A stretch of DNA of 64,000 nt from a phage. Shown piece by piece: positions 1,610-31,154 of the stretch (positions are counted from its first letter, which is position 1; each line of letters starts with the position of its first letter). The notes under the pieces are model-generated. The model saw only the letters and a program-made list of their open reading frames with translations, ran no database searches and was not told the origin of the DNA. Where the stretch lies: sequence record PZ386966.1. One strand, written 5' to 3'. The translations under genes and the position numbers were made by a program.

Positions 1610-3085
1610 GTGAGAAGAATGGCAGATATTACAGAAACACAAGAAAGCTTACCACCATTTAGAATGGGTGAAGTAGGTTCTTTGGGTCTGAAGGTTAAGA
1701 ATGGAAGAATCTATGAAGAACCTCGTCAGGCACTAAGGTTCCCTGAAAGTATTAAAACTTTCCAATTAATGATGCGTGACCCTGCTGTAGCAGCATCTGT
1801 AAATATTATTAAGATGTTTGTCAGAAAAGTCAACTGGAGATTCGTACCTCCAAAGGGAAAAGAGCAAGACCCTAAAATGCTTGAAAGAGCAGACTTCTTT
1901 AATTCTTTAATGGATGACATGGAGCATGATTGGGCAGATTTTATTAACTCTGTAATGTCATTCTGCACTTATGGGTTCTGTGTTAACGAAAAAGTTTATA
2001 AGAAACGTCAGGGTAAAAAAGGAAAGTACCAGTCAAAATTTGATGATGGTTTAATCGGGTGGGCTAAATTACCAATCAGAAACCAGTCAACACTTGATAA
2101 GTGGTATTTTGACGAAGACTTTAGAAAAGTTACTGGTGTTAGACAGAATCTGAGAAATGTTTCACATATTGCTGGAGCAATTAATCTTGGAGAAAGACCT
2201 CTAACAAGAAAGCTTCCACGAGCTAAATTTATGCTGTTTAAGTATGACGATGAATATGGAAATCCAGAAGGGCGTTCACCATTACTTAATGCTTATGTAC
2301 CGTGGAAATATAAAGTACAGATTGAAGAGTATGAAGCTGTTGGTGTTTCAAGAGACTTAGTAGGTATGCCAAAGATTGGTTTACCACCAGACTATCTGGA
2401 TGAAAATGCAGAGCCTGAAAAGAAAGCCTTCGTACAATACTGCAAAACTGTTGTTAATGATATGATTGCTAATGACAGAGCGGGTTTAATCTGGCCTAGA
2501 TATATCGACCCAGATACTAAAGAGGATATCTTTGAGTTCTCATTAGTTTCTAGACAGGGTGCTAAAGCATACGATACAGGTTCTATTATTGATAGATATT
2601 CCAAGCAGATTATGATGGCATTCATGTCAGATGTTCTTGCTATGGGTCAGTCAAAATATGGTTCATTCTCTCTTGCAGATTCTAAGACAAGCCTATTAGC
2701 AATGTCTGTAGATATTCTGCTGAAGCAAATTAAGAACGTAATTAACCGTGATTTAGTTGCACAGACTTACGCTCTTAATATGTGGGATGATGAAGAACAT
2801 GTACAAATCACATATGATGATATCGAAACTCCAGACCTTGAAGCAATTGGTTCTTATATTCAGAAGACTGTTGCAGTAGGTGCTTTGGAAGTTGACAAAG
2901 AGCTATCTAACAAACTTAGAGAGCATATTGGTCTTCCTCCTGCTGATGAGTCTCAGCCAGTATCTGAAAAGCTTTCTCCAAATAGCCAAAGCCGTTCAGG
3001 AGATGGTTATAAGACCGCTGGAGAAGGTACTGCAAAGACACCTTCAGCGAAAGACCCAAGCACAGCAAATAAGGCAAATAAATAA
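1610..3085 (+). CDS. portal protein
   Basis: 491 aa ORF immediately after terminase; position and size typical of portal; acidic/basic C-terminal tail. Confidence 0.5.
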   Translation: MRRMADITETQESLPPFRMGEVGSLGLKVKNGRIYEEPRQALRFPESIKTFQLMMRDPAVAASVNIIKMFVRKVNWRFVPPKGKEQDPKMLERADFFNSLMDDMEHDWADFINSVMSFCTYGFCVNEKVYKKRQGKKGKYQSKFDDGLIGWAKLPIRNQSTLDKWYFDEDFRKVTGVRQNLRNVSHIAGAINLGERPLTRKLPRAKFMLFKYDDEYGNPEGRSPLLNAYVPWKYKVQIEEYEAVGVSRDLVGMPKIGLPPDYLDENAEPEKKAFVQYCKTVVNDMIANDRAGLIWPRYIDPDTKEDIFEFSLVSRQGAKAYDTGSIIDRYSKQIMMAFMSDVLAMGQSKYGSFSLADSKTSLLAMSVDILLKQIKNVINRDLVAQTYALNMWDDEEHVQITYDDIETPDLEAIGSYIQKTVAVGALEVDKELSNKLREHIGLPPADESQPVSEKLSPNSQSRSGDGYKTAGEGTAKTPSAKDPSTANKANK

Positions 3086-5697: not shown

Positions 5698-6801
5698 ATG
5701 TTGACTAATTCTGAAAAAAGCAGATTTTTCCTTGCTGACCTGACTGGTGAAGTCCAGTCTATCCCAAATACTTATGGGTATATTTCCAACTTAGGTCTGT
5801 TCCGTTCAGCACCAATCACCCAAACTACTTTCCTTATGGATTTGACTGATTGGGATGTTAGCTTGCTTGATGCGGTAGACCGTGATAGCCGTAAAGCAGA
5901 GACTAGCGCACCTGAGCGTGTTCGTCAAATCAGCTTCCCAATGATGTACTTCAAAGAAGTTGAAAGCATTACTCCTGATGAAATTCAGGGTGTACGTCAG
6001 CCAGGCACTGCAAACGAACTGACTACCGAAGCTGTAGTACGTGCTAAGAAGCTGATGAAGATTCGTACCAAGTTCGATATTACTCGTGAGTTCCTGTTTA
6101 TGCAAGCTCTGAAGGGTAAAGTTGTTGATGCTCGTGGTACTCTGTATGCTGACCTGTACAAGCAGTTCGACGTTGAGAAGAAGACTGTTTACTTCGACCT
6201 TGACAACCCTAATGCTGACATCGACGCTTCTATTGAAGAACTGCGTATGCACATGGAAGACGAAGCTAAGACTGGCACTGTAATCAACGGTGAAGAAATT
6301 CACGTAGTTGTTGACCGTGTATTCTTCAGCAAGCTGACTAAACACCCTAAGATTCGTGATGCCTATCTTGCACAGCAGACCCCACTGGCTTGGCAACAGA
6401 TTACTGGTTCTCTGAGAACTGGTGGTACTGACGGCGTTCAGGCTCACATGAACACTTTCTACTACGGTGGTGTTAAGTTTGTCCAGTACAACGGTAAGTT
6501 CAAAGACAAGCGTGGTAAGGTTCATACTCTGGTGAGCATTGATGGTGCTGGTGCAGAGGTTGGTGTAGGACACGCTTTCCCTAACGTTTCTATGCTGGGT
6601 GAAGCAAACAACATCTTCGAAGTGGCTTATGGCCCATGCCCTAAGATGGGTTACGCAAATACACTTGGTCAGGAACTGTATGTATTCGAATACGAAAAAG
6701 ACCGTGATGAAGGTATTGACTTCGAAGCTCACTCTTACATGCTGCCATACTGTACTCGTCCTCAGTTGCTGGTAGACGTTCGTTCTGACGCTAAAGACTA
6801 A
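5698..6801 (+). CDS. major capsid protein
   Basis: 367 aa ORF directly after protease/scaffold; strong RBS context; size and position typical; recalled similarity to lambda gpE-type capsid proteins is unverified. Confidence 0.6.
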   Translation: MLTNSEKSRFFLADLTGEVQSIPNTYGYISNLGLFRSAPITQTTFLMDLTDWDVSLLDAVDRDSRKAETSAPERVRQISFPMMYFKEVESITPDEIQGVRQPGTANELTTEAVVRAKKLMKIRTKFDITREFLFMQALKGKVVDARGTLYADLYKQFDVEKKTVYFDLDNPNADIDASIEELRMHMEDEAKTGTVINGEEIHVVVDRVFFSKLTKHPKIRDAYLAQQTPLAWQQITGSLRTGGTDGVQAHMNTFYYGGVKFVQYNGKFKDKRGKVHTLVSIDGAGAEVGVGHAFPNVSMLGEANNIFEVAYGPCPKMGYANTLGQELYVFEYEKDRDEGIDFEAHSYMLPYCTRPQLLVDVRSDAKD

Positions 6802-7272: not shown

Positions 7273-7754
7273 TGGTTAAAAGGGTTATTCACCCCGCTAG
7301 AGCAAAATTAGTCGGGGCTATGAAGAACTTGCAAACGGCTAATGCTCAAGTTGGGTATTTTCAAGAACAAGGTCAACATAGCTCTGGTTTTTCTTATCCT
7401 GCTTTAATGTATTTACAAGAAGTTATTGGAATCCCTTCAGCTTCTGGTAAAGTATATCGTAGGTTGTTTGAAATCACTATGATGCTAAACAAACAGACCT
7501 TGTTAGAGCAGACTAAGAAGAATCTATATAAGCAACTTAGCAGTCTCAACACAGACCCTTCAAATACCTTAGAAGCATTTGCAAAGAATGCTCAAAAGGT
7601 AATTAAAAGAGGTTTTGGTAATTCTGCTATCCTCCCTCCTAACGCACCTTCCACAGTCAAGAAAAAAGGCTTTAATGCACCTCTTGTTGAGACAGGTGAC
7701 TTAAGGGATAGCCTTGCTTATAAAATTTCTACTAAGAAGGGTATTAAGAAATGA
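7272..7754 (+). CDS. hypothetical head-tail connector/completion protein
   Basis: Position between capsid and sheath genes; start overlaps upstream stop. Confidence 0.35.
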   Translation: MVKRVIHPARAKLVGAMKNLQTANAQVGYFQEQGQHSSGFSYPALMYLQEVIGIPSASGKVYRRLFEITMMLNKQTLLEQTKKNLYKQLSSLNTDPSNTLEAFAKNAQKVIKRGFGNSAILPPNAPSTVKKKGFNAPLVETGDLRDSLAYKISTKKGIKK

Positions 7755-8152
7755 GACTCTTAAACAGACACAGCTTTGTAGTAAAGCGTAAAGTCTCTGA
7801 AGACGGTTATTATAATGATGATGGTGATTGGGTAGCTTCACAAGATATTGTAGAGGTTAACTGTAAAGGTAATATCCAGCCATATATCAAAGGTTCTGTA
7901 AAGAATGGTACACAGATTGCTTTACCGGAAGGTATCAGGCTTACCGATACAAGAATCCTGTATACCACATATAAACTTAGAACTTCAGATGATGTAGAGT
8001 GGAATGAGTCTGATATTGTTATGATTGATGGTCATGAGTATGAAGTATTTATGACTATGGATTGGTCACAGCAATTAGCCCATACATCCCATTATGAATA
8101 TATCATTATTAGAAGGGATAAAATGAATGCAGTTAGAAACAGCAGAACTTGA
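7751..8152 (+). CDS. hypothetical head-tail joining protein
   Basis: Position; overlapping start (ATGA). Confidence 0.35.
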   Translation: MRLLNRHSFVVKRKVSEDGYYNDDGDWVASQDIVEVNCKGNIQPYIKGSVKNGTQIALPEGIRLTDTRILYTTYKLRTSDDVEWNESDIVMIDGHEYEVFMTMDWSQQLAHTSHYEYIIIRRDKMNAVRNSRT

Positions 8153-8726: not shown

Positions 8727-10079
8727 ATGTGGAATCCAATTGTTAATGTAGATATTACATTGAACACCGCAGGAACTACAAGAGAAGGTTTTGGTTTGCC
8801 ACTATTCTTAGCTTCAACAGATAACTTTGAAGAAAGAGTGCGTGGTTACACTTCCTTAACTGAAGTTGCTGAAGATTTCGATGAGAATACTGCTGCATAT
8901 AAGGCTGCTAAACAACTTTGGAGTCAGACTCCTAAAGTAACTCAGCTTTATATTGGTAGACGCGCTATGCAGTACACTGTATCAATTCCTGATGCCGTTA
9001 CCGAAAGTACAGACTACTCAATTACTGTAGCTGCTGGCGGTGGAATTTCTCAACCATTCCAGTATACAGCACAAAGCTCAGATACTGCTGAGGTAGTTTT
9101 GCAACAGTTTAAAACACAGATTGAAGCTGACCCAACAATCAAAGATAAGGTTTCTGTGAACGTAACTGGTAGCAATGGTTCTGCCACAATGATTATTACC
9201 AAAGCTGGTGATAATGACTTTGTGAAAGTAACAACCACAGCACAGACTGTATATATTGCAAGTACAACTGCCGATACAGCATCAACTGCTCTGGCAGCTA
9301 TCGAAGCTTATTCTACCGACTGGTATTTCATTGCAGCAGAAGACAGAACTCAACAGTTTGTCTTAGCAATGGCTTCTGAGATTCAGGCTCGCAAGAAAAT
9401 CTTCTTTACAGCTAACTCTGATGTAACAGCCCTGCAAGGTACAGAATTAGCCAGTGCAAATGATGTTCCAGCACAGCTTGCTAAGAATATGTACACTCGT
9501 ACAGTTTGCTTGTGGCATCACGCAGCAGCAGAAGATTACCCAGAGATGGCATACATTGCTTATGGTGCTCCGTATGATGCAGGTTCAATTGCTTGGGGGA
9601 ATGCTCAGCTAACTGGTGTGGCAGCTTCTCTACAACCATCTAATCAGAGACCTCTGACAAGTATTCAGAAGTCTGCTTTAGATGCACGTCACTGTAACTT
9701 TATTGACCTTGATGGTGGTGTTCCAGTGGTTCGTAGAGGGATTACTTCTGGTGGGGAATGGATTGATATCGTCCGTGGTGTTGACTGGTTAGAATCAGAC
9801 CTGAAAACTTCTCTGAGAGACTTGCTAATTAACCAGAAGGGTGGTAAGATTACTTATGATGATACTGGTATTACCCGTATTCGTCAAGTCATTGAAACCT
9901 CTCTGCAAAGAGCAGTCAACAGAAACTTCCTGTCATCTTACACAGTTAATGTTCCTAAAGCCTCTCAAGTTGCTTTAGCAGACAAGAAAGCTCGTATCCT
10001 GAAAGACGTTACCTTCGCAGGTATCTTAGCAGGGGCTATCTTGGATGTTGACTTGAAAGGTACAGTGGCTTACGAATAA
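8727..10079 (+). CDS. tail sheath protein
   Basis: 450 aa ORF followed by a ~150 aa ORF, two small ORFs and the tape measure gene: the canonical sheath-tube-chaperone-TMP order of contractile tails. Confidence 0.5.
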   Translation: MWNPIVNVDITLNTAGTTREGFGLPLFLASTDNFEERVRGYTSLTEVAEDFDENTAAYKAAKQLWSQTPKVTQLYIGRRAMQYTVSIPDAVTESTDYSITVAAGGGISQPFQYTAQSSDTAEVVLQQFKTQIEADPTIKDKVSVNVTGSNGSATMIITKAGDNDFVKVTTTAQTVYIASTTADTASTALAAIEAYSTDWYFIAAEDRTQQFVLAMASEIQARKKIFFTANSDVTALQGTELASANDVPAQLAKNMYTRTVCLWHHAAAEDYPEMAYIAYGAPYDAGSIAWGNAQLTGVAASLQPSNQRPLTSIQKSALDARHCNFIDLDGGVPVVRRGITSGGEWIDIVRGVDWLESDLKTSLRDLLINQKGGKITYDDTGITRIRQVIETSLQRAVNRNFLSSYTVNVPKASQVALADKKARILKDVTFAGILAGAILDVDLKGTVAYE

Positions 10080-10094
10080 TAGAGGTAAATTGGA

Positions 10095-10541
10095 ATGGCT
10101 ATGTATCAGCAATATTCCCCTAAAGACGTTGTATGTAGCTGGAATGGTATTGCCATTGAAGGCTTTGCCCCAGACTCATTCTTACGTCTACAGAGAACAT
10201 CACCACTAGTAACACCAGTTGTTGGTGCAGGTGGTCAGGTTGCTCTGACAAGAAATGCAGACAAGACAGGTACTATTGAGATTGAGTTAATGCAGACCTC
10301 TCTCTCTAACCAGATGCTTTCTGCAATTCAAGCTAAACAAGACAATATGGAACTTGAAGAAGATATCTCTTCTAACTTCGTAATCTACGACCCATCAGGC
10401 TCTGTTCTGGCAACTGGTATTAACGCTTGGTTGCAGGAGTTACCACAGATTGAACTTGGTCGTGACCAGAACTCTAAAACTTGGATTTTTGGTTGTGAGA
10501 AGTTAGACTACACTTCTACAATTCCAGCGTCAAGTGTTTAA
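10095..10541 (+). CDS. tail tube protein
   Basis: 148 aa ORF after sheath, followed by a strong terminator as is typical of highly expressed sheath/tube pairs. Confidence 0.5.
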   Translation: MAMYQQYSPKDVVCSWNGIAIEGFAPDSFLRLQRTSPLVTPVVGAGGQVALTRNADKTGTIEIELMQTSLSNQMLSAIQAKQDNMELEEDISSNFVIYDPSGSVLATGINAWLQELPQIELGRDQNSKTWIFGCEKLDYTSTIPASSV

Positions 10542-11255: not shown

Positions 11256-19253
<7,998 letters not shown>

Positions 19254-26591: not shown

Positions 26592-26975
26592 TCAAATACC
26601 TGTGCAACTTCTGTTTTCTAAGAAATACTCAACACCATACATAGCTTTTTGCATCAAATCTTCTTTAAACTGGATACGGTGGTTGAGCATAGCCTGTACA
26701 TCAATATCATCACGGTGTTTCTCTTTAATATTTGCAGATTGCAGGAAATACTCTGCAAGAACGTGATACTGATAGTCAGTTACCTTATCAGTCATCTCTG
26801 TCAAAGATTCTTCAGAGATTGGTTTAAGTAGCTCACCATTAGCTAGAGCAACACCTTTTACAATCTGGCAAGTGTCTTCTGGAACACCTGATAAGTCCAC
26901 ATTTGGGAGTTCTGTTGCATTGACTGGTAAATTCATTGCCATAACCATTGCAGCAGCTAATAAAATCTTTTTCAT
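26592..26975 (-). CDS. secreted/periplasmic protein
   Basis: N-terminal signal peptide 'MKKILLAAAMVMAMNLPVNA'. Confidence 0.45.
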   Translation of the reverse strand: MKKILLAAAMVMAMNLPVNATELPNVDLSGVPEDTCQIVKGVALANGELLKPISEESLTEMTDKVTDYQYHVLAEYFLQSANIKEKHRDDIDVQAMLNHRIQFKEDLMQKAMYGVEYFLENRSCTGI

Positions 26976-27259
26976 AATGACCTCAAAGTTATATTGAATT
27001 TTGTATCACATTGAGTATAAAAATAAGCTATAACACCTGACTTGTCAACAGACTTTATAGCTTATTTGGCAGATTTTTTATAAGGCTACTACCATCCTTC
27101 CATACCAGACTACACCATGCCAGACCAGACTTCACATCACCTTACCGTGCAATACATCACTTGAAAACCCTCTTAGAAGACTCTTAAGTGATGTTGGTGA
27201 GTACCCGTTGGTTTATGCTGCTCAGTATACTCACCAAATTTTCTATGTCAACAACTTTA

Positions 27260-27403
27260 TATAAAAGTCCTGATAACTATATGCGTTACAAAACAGAAGA
27301 TTGTGAACAAGACACCCATTGCAAAGGATGTGTTCAAAAGCTTACTTGCAACGTATGACAATACAAAGACAACCAGTATAAATAGAATGACTGTACTGAA
27401 CAT
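27260..27403 (-). CDS. small two-helix membrane protein (not in ORF track, 47 aa)
   Basis: ATG at 27403 directly after ligase stop; translation 'MFSTVILFILVVFVLSYVASKLLNTSFAMGVLFTIFCFVTHIVIRTFI' is strongly hydrophobic. Confidence 0.3.
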
Positions 27404-27406
27404 AGT

Positions 27407-28543
27407 TTACTCATAATCCCTAATAACTAGCCCTACAGGAAACTGTAAAGAACCTTTACGAGTCATCTTCTGGAACTGAACAGTTAAAGGTTTCCCGATA
27501 AACTCTTCAGGATGTTCAGCAAGATACTGTTTCTTCTCGTGTGTAGTTTTCCATGAAACATCTACAAAGACGTTAGGAAGAGTCTCTACAACGAACTTAC
27601 CATGACCACGCTTATCGGTCTTTACACCAGTCACTTTAAACTCTTCAGTGTGCATCTTCTTGTGCTTAATCAAGAAGTATGAACGGTGACAACACTCATA
27701 GAAGGAGTCTTCAGAGATTGAACGGTACATTGCACCTTCAAACTTAACTTCAACCCACTTATCATGAGCTTCATCAAACTCTTCCCAAGAATTTACACGA
27801 CGAGACTTAACAGGGACAACTTTACAGCCGTCTCTAAAGTCATTCAATGGTGAAGTCTCAATAATATCTCTACGCTCAGGCCACGGCTTAGTGCTGTCAC
27901 AGATATCGTACCAGTAGAACTGGAGTAGATGTCGGTCTGGATTGTCTTCATTTTTAATCATGGAGACAATATCTTCTAAGTCCCACCCATGAGCATAAAT
28001 CTCTCCATCAAATTCATCAACGTCTTTATGGAGCCTCAACATAGTCATAATGTCAGGTGTTAGCTCAGTAGGTATTTTATAAACAGTATTCTCACGAGAA
28101 TAAGCCGTGAAACTAACTGAATCATCACCTCTTGAAATTCTACAACGTACACCATCAAGTTTTGGTTGAGCATCAGCAGGGAACTTCAGATACTTTGCAT
28201 GACTAACCTTTGCAGCATCATGAGCAAGCTGTACACCTACCTTCTCAGTACTCTGTGCAGACTCTTTTGTGTAAGCATAACCTTTACGGTCAACTTGCTT
28301 TTTATACTTAGCAGCAACTTCAAAGAGAGCTTGCTGTTCAGCGTTACGCTCATTCTTTTTACCGATGTTTTTAGGTTCTGCTGTGTACTCTTCAAACATC
28401 ATCTTGCCATTTTCTTTACCGTAGGTTGTAATAACTTTGTCACCTACAGCCACACATGACCAGACATTGAAAGAGCCATCTTTATTTTGTTTGTATAGAA
28501 TTGTCATTTTATTCCTCTGAGTGATACCAAGTATTGCAAGCAT
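27407..28543 (-). CDS. ATP-dependent DNA ligase
   Basis: Adenylation motif I 'KLDGVRC' (KxDGxR); size 378 aa typical of T7/T4-type ligases. Confidence 0.6.
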   Translation of the reverse strand: MLAILGITQRNKMTILYKQNKDGSFNVWSCVAVGDKVITTYGKENGKMMFEEYTAEPKNIGKKNERNAEQQALFEVAAKYKKQVDRKGYAYTKESAQSTEKVGVQLAHDAAKVSHAKYLKFPADAQPKLDGVRCRISRGDDSVSFTAYSRENTVYKIPTELTPDIMTMLRLHKDVDEFDGEIYAHGWDLEDIVSMIKNEDNPDRHLLQFYWYDICDSTKPWPERRDIIETSPLNDFRDGCKVVPVKSRRVNSWEEFDEAHDKWVEVKFEGAMYRSISEDSFYECCHRSYFLIKHKKMHTEEFKVTGVKTDKRGHGKFVVETLPNVFVDVSWKTTHEKKQYLAEHPEEFIGKPLTVQFQKMTRKGSLQFPVGLVIRDYE

Positions 28544-29789: not shown

Positions 29790-30349
29790 TCAGTGTACCT
29801 CAAGCCAATTCTTACCAACTTTACCAGTACCAGTTACAAGCGTTTCCTCCTTAAGTCCTAAGTTTCTTGATGCCTGACCATACATCCAGTCAATCACTGC
29901 TTTAACATCTTGTGTCATCTCTTCTGGGCACTCCCAACTATTCTCATCGTGGTATGCTAGAAGCAATCTAGCACCAATGGCTGGTTTTCGACCATTCAGC
30001 TTTGTAAGACCCTCTTCACAAGTTCTTCTACAAGCGAGGTTGATAGCTTCATTCTGAACCTGACTTTCCGAACCCATGAGCAAGTAATTTAAAAGTTTGT
30101 GCGGAGATTTACACCACAACCATGCACCTGCTACCTTTACAAAACCACCCTTAGATATTGCAGCAGTCTTACCAAACACCTCTTCAAGAGCCTTCTTAGT
30201 GGCTTTGAAGTCTGCTTCCAAATTATCTATCAACTTTTTAATCTTAGGAAGGCGTACAAAGTAAGTTTGCTTAGTTAAAGCACCTTCTTCGGTTGTTGAT
30301 GCTTTAATCGTCTTGGCAAACTTCTCATCACCTGCCCCAAACAATACAT
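29790..30349 (-). CDS. DNA polymerase family A, C-terminal exon (exon 2)
   Basis: Track ORF begins at a TTG, not ATG; frame opens right after an in-frame TGA; N-terminus 'LFGAGDEKFAKT' completes Pol A motif B (T7 'YGAGDEK'); 'LLLAYHDENSWECPEE' is motif C (HDE). Confidence 0.6.
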
Positions 30350-31154
30350 CTGGTCAATACACTCGCAAGGTGTACCAGTTCTCTTATGAACTTCTCCGCA
30401 TTTCTACGGAGTGTCGGACTATATCACGTAGTAGTAATACTACCGTTGCACTTGGGAATGGTCATTAGCTTACCAACCTACTCTACTCAGTTCATACATT
30501 AAGTATGCTTTTCGATAGTCTCTGAACGTTTCTCTGTTAGGAATCTCTATAATCATGTTATTTACTCAGGTAGTCAATTGCCCTTTGCATATTATCAACG
30601 CTATCTGCAAGTAACCCTAAAGCCCTATTGCAATTGTGGCACAACATACCTCTTACTTTTCCGGTTTTGTGGTCATGGTCAACGACAAGTTTAGCTTTAT
30701 GCCGTGAACTATTCATGATAAAACCTTCACCGCCACAAATTTGACATTTGTAATCACAGTTGCGAAGTAGGTTTTCAACCTCTTCTCTTTCTAAACCATA
30801 TGTTCTCAGGTAGTAATTCTTAACTCTACCTTTCTCTCCGCAATGTGAAGAACAATAAACTTGCCTTGCTGTTCTAGGCATGAACACCTTCTCACAGCTA
30901 GGACATTTCTTAGTAAGAACCCTATGTTCTGCTCTTCTGTCAAATTTTAATACGCAACTTCTGCACCGTTTTTGATTGTATTGGTATGGTTTAAACTCTG
31001 CACCACACTCAGTACACAATCTTTCTTTGTAACCTGCCATTGTCTCTCTCCTTTGCTTTAGGAGTCCTAACAGAGACTTCGCTGCTGATTACCATATCTT
31101 TACAGACTTAGGCTTCCAGCAATTCACAACGTTTTACATGCGCCACTGACGCAT
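30350..31154 (-). mobile_element. group I intron (IA-like) interrupting the DNA polymerase gene, with HEG in P6 region
   Basis: Minus-strand conserved elements in canonical order: P-like 'aattgctggaagcc' (31111-31124), Q-like 'aatcagcagc' (31081-31090), R 'gttcagagacta' (30516-30527), S 'gatatagtcc' (30416-30425). Proposed 5' splice after a U and 3' splice after a G restore an in-frame motif B. Exact boundaries inferred. Confidence 0.6.
30558..31040 (-). CDS. intron-encoded endonuclease VII-like (HNH-type) homing endonuclease
   Basis: 'VVDHDHKTGKVRGMLCHNCNRALG' matches the T4 endo VII catalytic motif; N-terminal CxxC zinc ribbons; lies between the two polymerase exons. Confidence 0.6.
   Translation of the reverse strand: MAGYKERLCTECGAEFKPYQYNQKRCRSCVLKFDRRAEHRVLTKKCPSCEKVFMPRTARQVYCSSHCGEKGRVKNYYLRTYGLEREEVENLLRNCDYKCQICGGEGFIMNSSRHKAKLVVDHDHKTGKVRGMLCHNCNRALGLLADSVDNMQRAIDYLSK

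Follow-up and report, generated by a model that had tools for sequence, protein, structure and literature searches.

What, if anything, is encoded in the spacer that separates the ATP-dependent DNA ligase gene (27407-28543) from the following gene of 127 amino acids (26592-26975) in a Felix O1-like phage (PZ386966.1)? The window analyzed here comprises 64,000 nt of this genome, and about 23 kb of the genome lie outside it. The region is 95% identical to Felixounavirus genomes such as Salmonella phage pSJ21 and E. coli phage Ro111lw; matches to it were found in 258 phage records. In about 15 related records inspected, of more than 200 that match the region, the gap is left blank or is labeled as terminator or promoter, and none annotates an RNA gene; neither the Felix O1 genome paper nor the Bas63 PhageMaP paper mentions the element. 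We are highly confident that the spacer contains the gene for a guide RNA (vrRNA) of the VIPR type, homologous to the vrRNA genes of Escherichia phage SUSP1, that the genome lacks the effector gene vipr, and that the code of the guide specifies vipr itself.

The first description of VIPR (Viral Interference Programmable Repeat) systems, from 2026, presents a minimal form of RNA-guided DNA silencing that may predate CRISPR. As the main text of the preprint describes it, Vipr is a RAMP-like protein of about 20 kDa that polymerizes along the repeats of the vrRNA, which consists of 9-16 YNNGG repeats and an invariant tail, folded as a pseudoknot in the SUSP1 clade. Target recognition is by pairing of the NN dinucleotides with double-stranded DNA, one target base being skipped per repeat, usually at a codon wobble position; binding of the Vipr-vrRNA complex silences transcription, and vap1 is an accessory gene. 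The natural targets reported there are competing phages and satellites, certain guides target other VIPR systems, and the SUSP1 vrRNAs were detected by small RNA sequencing and pull-down (10.64898/2026.04.26.720920). The published SUSP1 structures also contain the 3' pseudoknot of the vrRNA (10.64898/2026.04.26.720927).

A vrRNA gene without vipr

The spacer was compared with 26 related loci, oriented along transcription, and statistics on repeat arrays were collected on 27 loci. Between the ligase and the 127-amino-acid gene, the spacer is modular and varies from 273 to 2132 nt. Its order in the relatives is a near-invariant promoter (P1) with two hairpins, a variable patterned stretch, an invariant block beginning with GGTATGGAAGGATGGCAGTAGCC, a 13-bp hairpin, and a second promoter (P2). 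The variable stretch differs in almost every phage, with its pattern retained. An insert of 1.4-1.7 kb, containing a gene of 195-200 amino acids and a gene of 146 amino acids, was observed in 14 of the 26 related loci.

The patterned stretch of the window, at 27100-27154, is a degenerate (GGTNN)n tract of period 5. It is the sole such tract on both strands of the window, 0.16 being expected in shuffled sequences; a period of 6 was also considered for this GT-rich stretch and was rejected, as the scan found zero tracts at periods 4, 6, and 7, and one at period 5. Read on the minus strand, it forms an array of 11 YNNGG units (27154-27100), with a pyrimidine at the first position and G at the last one in all 11, and with the first G in seven, the remaining four units having TG or AG. 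An equal count of imperfect units is found in the fourth vrRNA of SUSP1. Ten of the units (27105..27154) form the guide tract, TATTG CACGG TAAGG TGATG TGAAG TCTGG TCTGG CATGG TGTAG TCTGG, and their NN code is AT AC AA GA GA CT CT AT GT CT. The last unit, TATGG (27100..27104), is the only one that does not match the vipr target considered below; the same unit ends 52 of 63 arrays, and it probably belongs to the handle of the RNA, not to the guide.

The same pattern is observed across the relatives, which have from one to five tracts each, of 8-21 units. In 63 arrays with 839 units from the 27 loci, 99.8% of units begin with a pyrimidine, and 99% have G at position 5. The information content is 1.46 bits for Y, 0.09 and 0.17 bits for the two N positions, and 1.02 and 1.89 bits for the two G positions, and the 63 arrays contain 51 distinct guides.

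The tract is followed by an invariant 3' tail of 32 nt, AAGGATGGTAGTAGCCTTATAAAAAATCTGCC (27068..27099, minus strand), predicted to fold into an H-type pseudoknot, in which stem S1 joins 27099-27096 with 27085-27082, and stem S2 joins 27093-27089 with 27072-27068. All nine pairs are standard in each of the seven distinct tail variants, whereas 3' partners slid along the sequence pair in only 29-52% of cells. Three of the pairs are compensatory between tail types, namely AAGG/CCTT versus GTGG/CCAC and GGCAG/CTGCC versus GGTAG/CTACC. A vrRNA with an intact pseudoknot is retained in all 27 loci. The covariance models of Rfam 15 gave no significant match, the lone hit being a 10-bit chance match to Ocean-VII (E=8), and ARAGORN found no tRNA or tmRNA in the window. 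A preliminary description of the gap, made from the sequence, had named a regulatory RNA among its possibilities; an RNA gene is indeed present, but it is a VIPR guide RNA, and the repeats and the tail by which it is defined had been passed over between the hairpins.

The assignment to VIPR comes from the proteins that accompany such tracts. A blind scan of IMG/VR for (GGTNN)7GGT yielded, besides microsatellites, many unrelated viral contigs with degenerate tracts, often 5-17 of them in tandem. Almost all of these tracts lie between genes, on the sense strand, and many begin 0-15 nt past the stop codon of an open reading frame (ORF) of 175-210 amino acids. Among 47 same-strand ORFs ending at most 60 nt upstream of a tract, 23 belong to one family, homologous to the 200-amino-acid protein of the Felix-type insert. 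More than 500 proteins belong to this unnamed family. Searches of Pfam and PADLOC gave no match for the cassette proteins, and the family profile matches the PDB entry 36pp_D, 'SUSP1 Vipr protein', with E=2.7e-79. In the relatives, the cassette proteins share 97% (Vipr) and 99% (vap1) identity with their SUSP1 counterparts, and the AlphaFold model of Vipr has a confidence score (pLDDT) of 95. Several other readings of the tract, namely a binding site for a TRAP-like ring protein, two-tetrad G-quadruplexes, an R-loop origin, a recombination hot spot resembling switch regions or preferred by RecA, and base pairing with the 3' ends of tRNAs, were abandoned after the protein accompanying the tracts had proved to be Vipr.

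The SUSP1 locus gives the closest comparison. Its order is the ligase gene, an alternative small ORF, P1, hairpins, vrRNA1, vipr, vap1, vrRNA2 to vrRNA4, P2, and a homologue of the 127-amino-acid gene, so that the vrRNAs of SUSP1, which belong to type II VIPR, occupy the same slot as the window array. The 5' half of the window spacer aligns upstream of the SUSP1 vipr gene, sharing with vrRNA1 the promoter and the 36-nt 5' hairpin, and the 3' half aligns with the last vrRNA, sharing its tail and the downstream hairpin with P2. The two tails are 1 nt apart, a C to T change that turns a pair into a U-G wobble. The 11 window units are within the published range of 9-16, and the predicted target obeys the rule of one skipped nucleotide, with the wobble base skipped. 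The window phage differs from SUSP1 by having one vrRNA instead of four and no detected vipr or vap1. In SUSP1, an exact 36-bp direct repeat, corresponding to hairpin 2, precedes both vrRNA1 and vrRNA4, the two copies being 1,556 bp apart, and recombination between such copies would yield exactly the layout of the window.

Among the 27 related loci, 15 have both vipr and vap1 at exactly this position, as does SUSP1. No homologue of Vipr or vap1 was found in the window by tblastn and the Vipr profile hidden Markov model, and a search for them in the remaining 24 kb of pSJ21, the closest relative, which match the part of the genome outside the window, also gave nothing, the SUSP1 positive control being recovered at 1.3e-81. 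The sequence features of a vrRNA are present, and vipr and vap1 were not found; therefore the RNA belongs to the vrRNA family, and the locus is not a complete VIPR system.

The target encoded by the guide

Decoding followed the published method, in which each GGY is replaced by one wildcard, and gives ATnACnAAnGAnGAnCTnCTnATnGTnCT(nAT). At a threshold of at least 17 of 22 positions, the only matches in the Felix-like sequence examined are at one homologous site inside vipr, in all 15 vipr-carrying loci. The matched sequence, ATC ACC AAA GAG GAA CTC CTG ATG GTT CTG, encodes Vipr residues 157-166 (ITKEELLMVL), and the skipped base is always codon position 3, that is, the wobble position. The ten guide units agree with vipr at 20 of 20 NN positions in four vipr-carrying loci and at 17-19 of 20 in the other 11 of the 15. 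Where the agreement is 20/20, mismatches are confined to the last unit, TATGG. The maximum reached by 300 permuted guides is 17/20 (121 kb). Since the match is non-contiguous, with a period of 5 nt in the guide and 3 nt in the target, it cannot be produced by ordinary sequence homology. Further, seven of the ten target codons differ at the wobble position among vipr alleles, and the match is unaffected.

At NN positions, the target varies among vipr alleles as AAA/AGA/CGA, CTC/ATC, and CTG/TTG. The guide family comprises three NN variants. One has CT and is perfect to the CTG alleles; another has TT and is perfect to the TTG alleles, including that of SUSP1; the third combines AG with TT and carries the G of the AGA alleles. 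Both NN polymorphisms of the guide family fall at sites that are polymorphic in vipr.

Of the 51 distinct guides, only the window guide family and one further guide match vipr, and the carriers of both are vipr-less. The second one is an orphan guide of the contig IMGVR_UViG_2706796256_000001 (L007, 2322-2376) with the NN code AG GT TC GC TG CT AG AA. It matches vipr at 16/16 NN positions, on the antisense strand, in wobble phase, at the codons for FLSHADTL near the 5' end of the gene. No anti-vipr guide was seen in the 45 arrays of the 15 vipr-carrying loci, and the window guide has no target in the window itself at up to three mismatches. Two other sets of matches were set aside. The only exact nine-unit match in IMG/VR was found in a virus with 37% GC (IMGVR_UViG_3300008217_003711, 8804-8829), in a tail-fibre-like gene of 961 amino acids; it was judged to be due to chance because the skipped base is codon position 1 and two 5' units mismatch. 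With one genome per species, the nine-unit code has 42 matches, none of them in Enterobacteriaceae, which is consistent with chance.

The guide family was read in 13 phages (the window phage, Felix O1, Si3, pSJ21, skuden, SUT_S720, phiWec172, LF82P3, EC106, BPS17L1, VpaE1_ev78, IME338, and mio), all of which lack vipr at the locus. Of 231 records matched by a guide-containing query of 141 nt, 73 are at least 90% identical over it. The overlap between 40 listed guide carriers and 54 listed Felix-like records with vipr is zero, about eight shared records being expected under independence. In the 12 phages tabulated, the variable columns of the guide family are 2 of 22 at NN, 4 of 11 at Y (all T/C), 4 of 11 at the first G, and 0 of 11 at the last G.

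Two observations on distribution are added here. VpaE1 (KM657822.1) and VpaE1_ev035 (LR699048.1) carry vipr, and VpaE1_ev78 (LR597663.1) is vipr-less at the locus and has the TT guide variant; if the 'ev' phages are laboratory-evolved or recombinant, VpaE1_ev78 may represent a documented recent swap of the locus. L136, a contig of an uncultivated virus in IMG/VR, has seven GGYNN clusters located between genes over 10 kb (including those at 2604-3003, 5809-6347, 7424-7853, 9048-9390, 10208-10367, and 12733-12922), with tracts of up to 80 units compared to the published 9-16. These clusters may be a different architecture of VIPR arrays, or something else.

Explanations for a guide without an effector

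Taken as a whole, these data are best explained, in our opinion with fair probability, by an orphan anti-VIPR guide that would work with the Vipr protein of a co-infecting rival. The proposed transcription unit, on the minus strand, would consist of P1, a leader with a 5' hairpin, the eleven YNNGG repeats, the pseudoknot tail, and an AU-rich terminator-like hairpin that contains P2. It could have originated from a SUSP1-type locus by recombination between the copies of the 36-bp hairpin, with the loss of vrRNA1, vipr, vap1, vrRNA2, and vrRNA3. If the RNA is expressed, then upon co-infection the orphan guide would be loaded into the rival's own Vipr, and the loaded protein would silence the rival's vipr gene and, by polarity, vap1. 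The outcome, presumably of benefit to the phage, would be a counter-measure against VIPR for which the phage itself need not encode an effector. For the narrower statement that the guide acts in trans with the rival's Vipr to silence vipr, we put the chances at about even. Still more tentatively, the guide may be a 'Trojan' one that hijacks the Vipr of a co-infecting relative, and the CTG/TTG polymorphism, possibly also AAA/AGA, may record an arms race between guide and effector.

A number of points weigh against this interpretation. Expression of the RNA and its binding to Vipr are predictions. The first G is degenerate in the four units noted above, and perturbation of the GGY motif is reported in the VIPR preprint to abolish silencing; however, the fourth vrRNA of SUSP1 has as many imperfect units, and the preprint also describes internal degeneracy as frequent. 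The U-G wobble of the window tail is at a position where every relative has C-G. The mechanism requires co-infection with a vipr-carrying relative, and no guides of such relatives that target the window phage were found; it is therefore not obvious what the phage would gain by disarming its rival. The conservation pattern of the guide is suggestive, the difference between 2/22 variable NN columns and 8/33 other variable columns being not significant. A relic, or a remnant of self-silencing, would likewise predict that guide and vipr exclude each other. The absence of vipr in the approximately 23 kb beyond the window is deduced from a 95%-identical relative, and the VIPR papers are preprints.

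The first alternative is that the element is an inert vrRNA left after vipr and vap1 had been lost via the 36-bp repeats, perhaps transcribed and having no function. It could persist because P1, the hairpins, and P2 are needed by the downstream operon, or because the deletion is recent. Such a loss agrees with the exact direct repeats flanking the 1,556-bp cassette in SUSP1 and with the failure to find vipr in the window or in the corresponding 24 kb of pSJ21. The four degenerate units of 11 and the U-G wobble in the tail also speak for it. In addition, identical guides are observed across vipr-less and vipr-carrying phages (that of locus L026 is the same as in L004 and L024, and that of L025 is the same as in L017 and L022), which implies recent gain or loss. 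However, an inert relic gives no reason for the wobble-phased match to vipr at 20 of 20 positions, and it leaves unexplained both the guide variants that match different vipr alleles and the presence of a second, unrelated anti-vipr guide in a vipr-less phage, with none in the 15 vipr-carrying loci. The preservation of the vrRNA and its pseudoknot in 27 of 27 loci also argues against inertness. We regard this explanation as unlikely.

Even less probable is that the guide is a fossil of self-targeting or autoregulation, when an ancestor silenced its own vipr, as feedback or as 'autoimmunity', vipr was then deleted, and the guide remained. The mutual exclusivity of guide and vipr across genomes would follow from this scenario, and each guide variant is perfect to some vipr allele, as if it had once matched its own gene. 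Self-targeting CRISPR spacers are reportedly associated with degraded cas loci. At the same time, the scenario needs several independent losses, and no intermediate having both vipr and an anti-vipr guide is seen among the 15 vipr-carrying loci; the preprint reports no self-targeting at 80% or more NN match where this was tested. The two independent anti-vipr guides, the tracking of vipr alleles, and the lack of a vipr-carrying genome with such a guide are explained less well by the relic and by the fossil than by a guide acting in trans.

Finally, the possibility that the gap is a cluster of promoters, operators, and a terminator for the leftward operon, with hairpins that bind a protein or attenuate transcription and with a meaningless GT-rich stretch, is very improbable: a pair of good minus-strand matches to sigma-70-type promoters, each of them associated with an inverted repeat, the promoter and terminator annotated in the gap in the record of phage ASO1A, and the helix-turn-helix (HTH) regulator gene downstream speak for it, but it leaves unexplained the retained period-5 GGY with hypervariable NN, the covarying pseudoknot, the homology to the experimentally detected SUSP1 vrRNAs, and the coded match to vipr, so that as a complete explanation it is contradicted and holds only for the flanking parts.

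Flanking features, neighboring genes, and related systems

The flanking parts can be described along the direction of transcription. Promoter P1 (27224..27251, minus strand), TTGACA-16 nt-TATACT, matches the consensus at 11 of 12 positions and is the predicted promoter of the vrRNA, with a predicted start near 27217. It is almost unchanged in 27 of 27 relatives and has the same position upstream of vrRNA1 in SUSP1. P2 (27020..27048, minus strand), TTGACA-17 nt-TATTTT, matches at 10 of 12 positions and would serve the downstream operon, which includes the 127-amino-acid gene, the HTH regulator gene, and others. A promoter/operator cluster had been one of the roles proposed for the gap in the preliminary description; it was correct insofar as there are two sigma-70-like promoters on the minus strand tied to inverted repeats, and it missed the element itself. 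The three inverted repeats reported there are all present at the same positions, with arms longer than the 8-9 bp ascribed to them (10, 9-11, and 13 bp, in the order of transcription).

Inverted repeat 1 (27194..27237, minus strand) has the form TTGGTGAGTA-24 nt-TACTCACCAA, with 10-bp arms at 27194-27203 and 27228-27237. Its 5' arm overlaps the spacer and the -10 box of P1, and only the 3' arm is within the leader predicted to be transcribed from P1. Folded as minus-strand RNA, it has an energy of -15.6 kcal/mol (z=-3.8 against dinucleotide shuffles, as for the other two repeats). The arms show almost no change in the aligned relatives; the repeat may be an operator, or a hairpin in read-through RNA.

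Inverted repeat 2 (27154..27194, minus strand), ACATCACTT/AAGTGATGT, extends to an imperfect palindrome of 20 nt and has a folding energy of -16.1 kcal/mol (z=-4.6). It is located directly 5' of the repeat tract and is homologous to the 36-bp direct repeat that precedes vrRNA1 and vrRNA4 in SUSP1. The 3' arm is in register with the pentamer repeats, and its changes among the relatives are not compensated in the 5' arm and fit the Y, N, and G classes of the repeat units. The 5' boundary of the mature RNA, or that of the Vipr filament, may be set by this hairpin.

Inverted repeat 3 (27021..27067, minus strand), AAATAAGCTATAA/TTATAGCTTATTT, has perfect 13-bp arms (27021-27033 and 27055-27067), a loop of 21 nt, and a folding energy of -15.8 kcal/mol (z=-3.2). 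It abuts the tail, consists of 13 AU-rich pairs followed by UUUUUAU, and is kept in all relatives and in SUSP1. P2 lies within it, with the -35 box in the loop and the -10 box overlapping the 3' arm, and the hairpin probably ends the vrRNA and starts the next operon via P2. None of the three hairpins was called by a consensus scan for terminators, since the loops measure 19-24 nt. All three flank the vrRNA as parts of its unit and do not represent independent regulatory structures. Among the existing annotations, the ASO1A record includes a terminator at hairpin 2, called by TransTermHP, and a promoter at P2, and the humlepung record labels one repeat tract as 'repeat_region'.

Upstream of P1, the spacer contains a small ORF with two hydrophobic stretches (27257..27403, minus strand; phrog_22006), which begins 3 nt past the ligase stop codon. 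The ORF proposed in the preliminary description is therefore real, though it has 48 and not 47 amino acids and spans 27403 to 27257. The reading frame is conserved, with 48 codons in nine of nine relatives that carry it. The protein matches positions 1-48 of the 48-position PHROG profile phrog_22006 with E=2.8e-30, and no match was found in Pfam and PADLOC. In several relatives, the records list at least three hypothetical proteins in the matching region, and these may include it. The ratio of nonsynonymous to synonymous substitution rates (dN/dS) is 0.06-0.26 for the pairs that differ in protein, and the numbers of variable sites at the three codon positions are 10/3/17. Judged from these substitution patterns, it is a genuine gene under purifying selection. 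The further proposal that it is a small membrane effector holds as far as the gene itself is concerned; the ORF is a separate accessory cassette outside the RNA element, since it occurs in both vipr-carrying and vipr-less relatives.

Three states of this slot are observed: the small ORF is present in nine loci and absent in about 13, and an ORF of 62 amino acids (phrog_5428) is found in four loci and in SUSP1. The latter ORF is very basic, contains Cys, and has a GTG start that overlaps the ligase stop codon (SUSP1, 2052-2240; L009, 378-566; also L010, L024, and L026). The cassette of about 150 bp with the 48-codon gene is bracketed by an imperfect 24-nt direct repeat, D1 (27256-27279 and 27406-27429; 17 of 24 positions identical), and relatives without the small ORF join exactly at the short direct repeat. 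This suggests that the cassette has been gained or lost by recombination at short homology. The ligase and the small ORF end in similar codons (V I R D Y E stop and V I R T F I stop, respectively). The pSJ21 record (L003, 2209-2358, plus strand) contains a plus-strand ORF of 49 amino acids, corresponding to 27188-27358 (plus strand) of the window, which overlaps both the P1 region and the conserved minus-strand 48-codon gene and was probably called in error.

The genes surrounding the gap, including the ligase gene and the 127-amino-acid gene, are on the minus strand throughout, and the latter is followed by a gene of 70 amino acids and the HTH regulator gene. Elsewhere in the window, at 29790-30344 and 30558-31040 (minus strand), an ORF of 160 amino acids that is rich in Cys pairs and has an HNH-like motif (DHDH...N) is located beside an ORF of 184 amino acids that resembles a piece of a larger replication gene; the pair may be a homing-endonuclease insertion.

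The element can also be compared with known systems. In the promoter-early stem-loop (PeSL) cassettes of T4-type phages, repeated modules of a promoter and a hairpin border small, variable ORFs within a hyperplastic region, and cassettes are shuffled or deleted through recombination between the repeats. The likeness to the window locus is limited to the 36-bp hairpin repeats and to the presence or absence of cassettes, as PeSL elements have no pentamer tract, pseudoknot, or guide. Virus-borne mini-CRISPR arrays, solitary repeat units, and RNA anti-CRISPRs have reportedly been found as well. They are similar in that a virus carries a guide or repeat RNA without an effector, and depends on the effector of another genome or interferes with it, in a conflict with another virus or with the host. 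They differ in having CRISPR repeats with contiguous spacers and a host effector, and the Racr RNAs are blocking decoys that do not retarget the effector.

Within VIPR itself, according to the main text of the preprints, the guides of the SUSP1 clade mostly target a satellite phage, in contrast to the predicted vipr target of the window guide. Guides against other VIPR systems are described for the P. fulva clade, but in genomes with their own Vipr. The vrRNAs of the SUSP1 satellites are also element-borne guides used in a conflict between related mobile elements; that conflict is between satellites, whereas here an autonomous lytic phage would be set against an effector gene. The kind of element is already known from the 2026 preprints. 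The main text of both contains no effector-less phage-borne guide against an effector gene, no Felix O1, and no orphan guides, so that an effector-less anti-effector guide in an autonomous phage is not found there. The VIPR survey began from the Vipr protein, and therefore RNA-only genomes would be missed by it.

For the annotation of these phages, a gap that is empty or labeled 'terminator/promoter' in the inspected records is an RNA gene. A large group of Felix O1-like phages, including the classical Salmonella typing phage Felix O1, carries an effector-less guide that points at the effector of its armed relatives. Should the guide be active, it would follow that VIPR guides can function in trans during co-infection by phages and that anti-VIPR counter-measures exist; and if it does act as a 'Trojan', it would be the first VIPR counter-defense and an RNA guide that evolves without a resident effector. 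An active guide would further mean that the code with one skipped nucleotide is alone sufficient to reveal who fights whom among phages.

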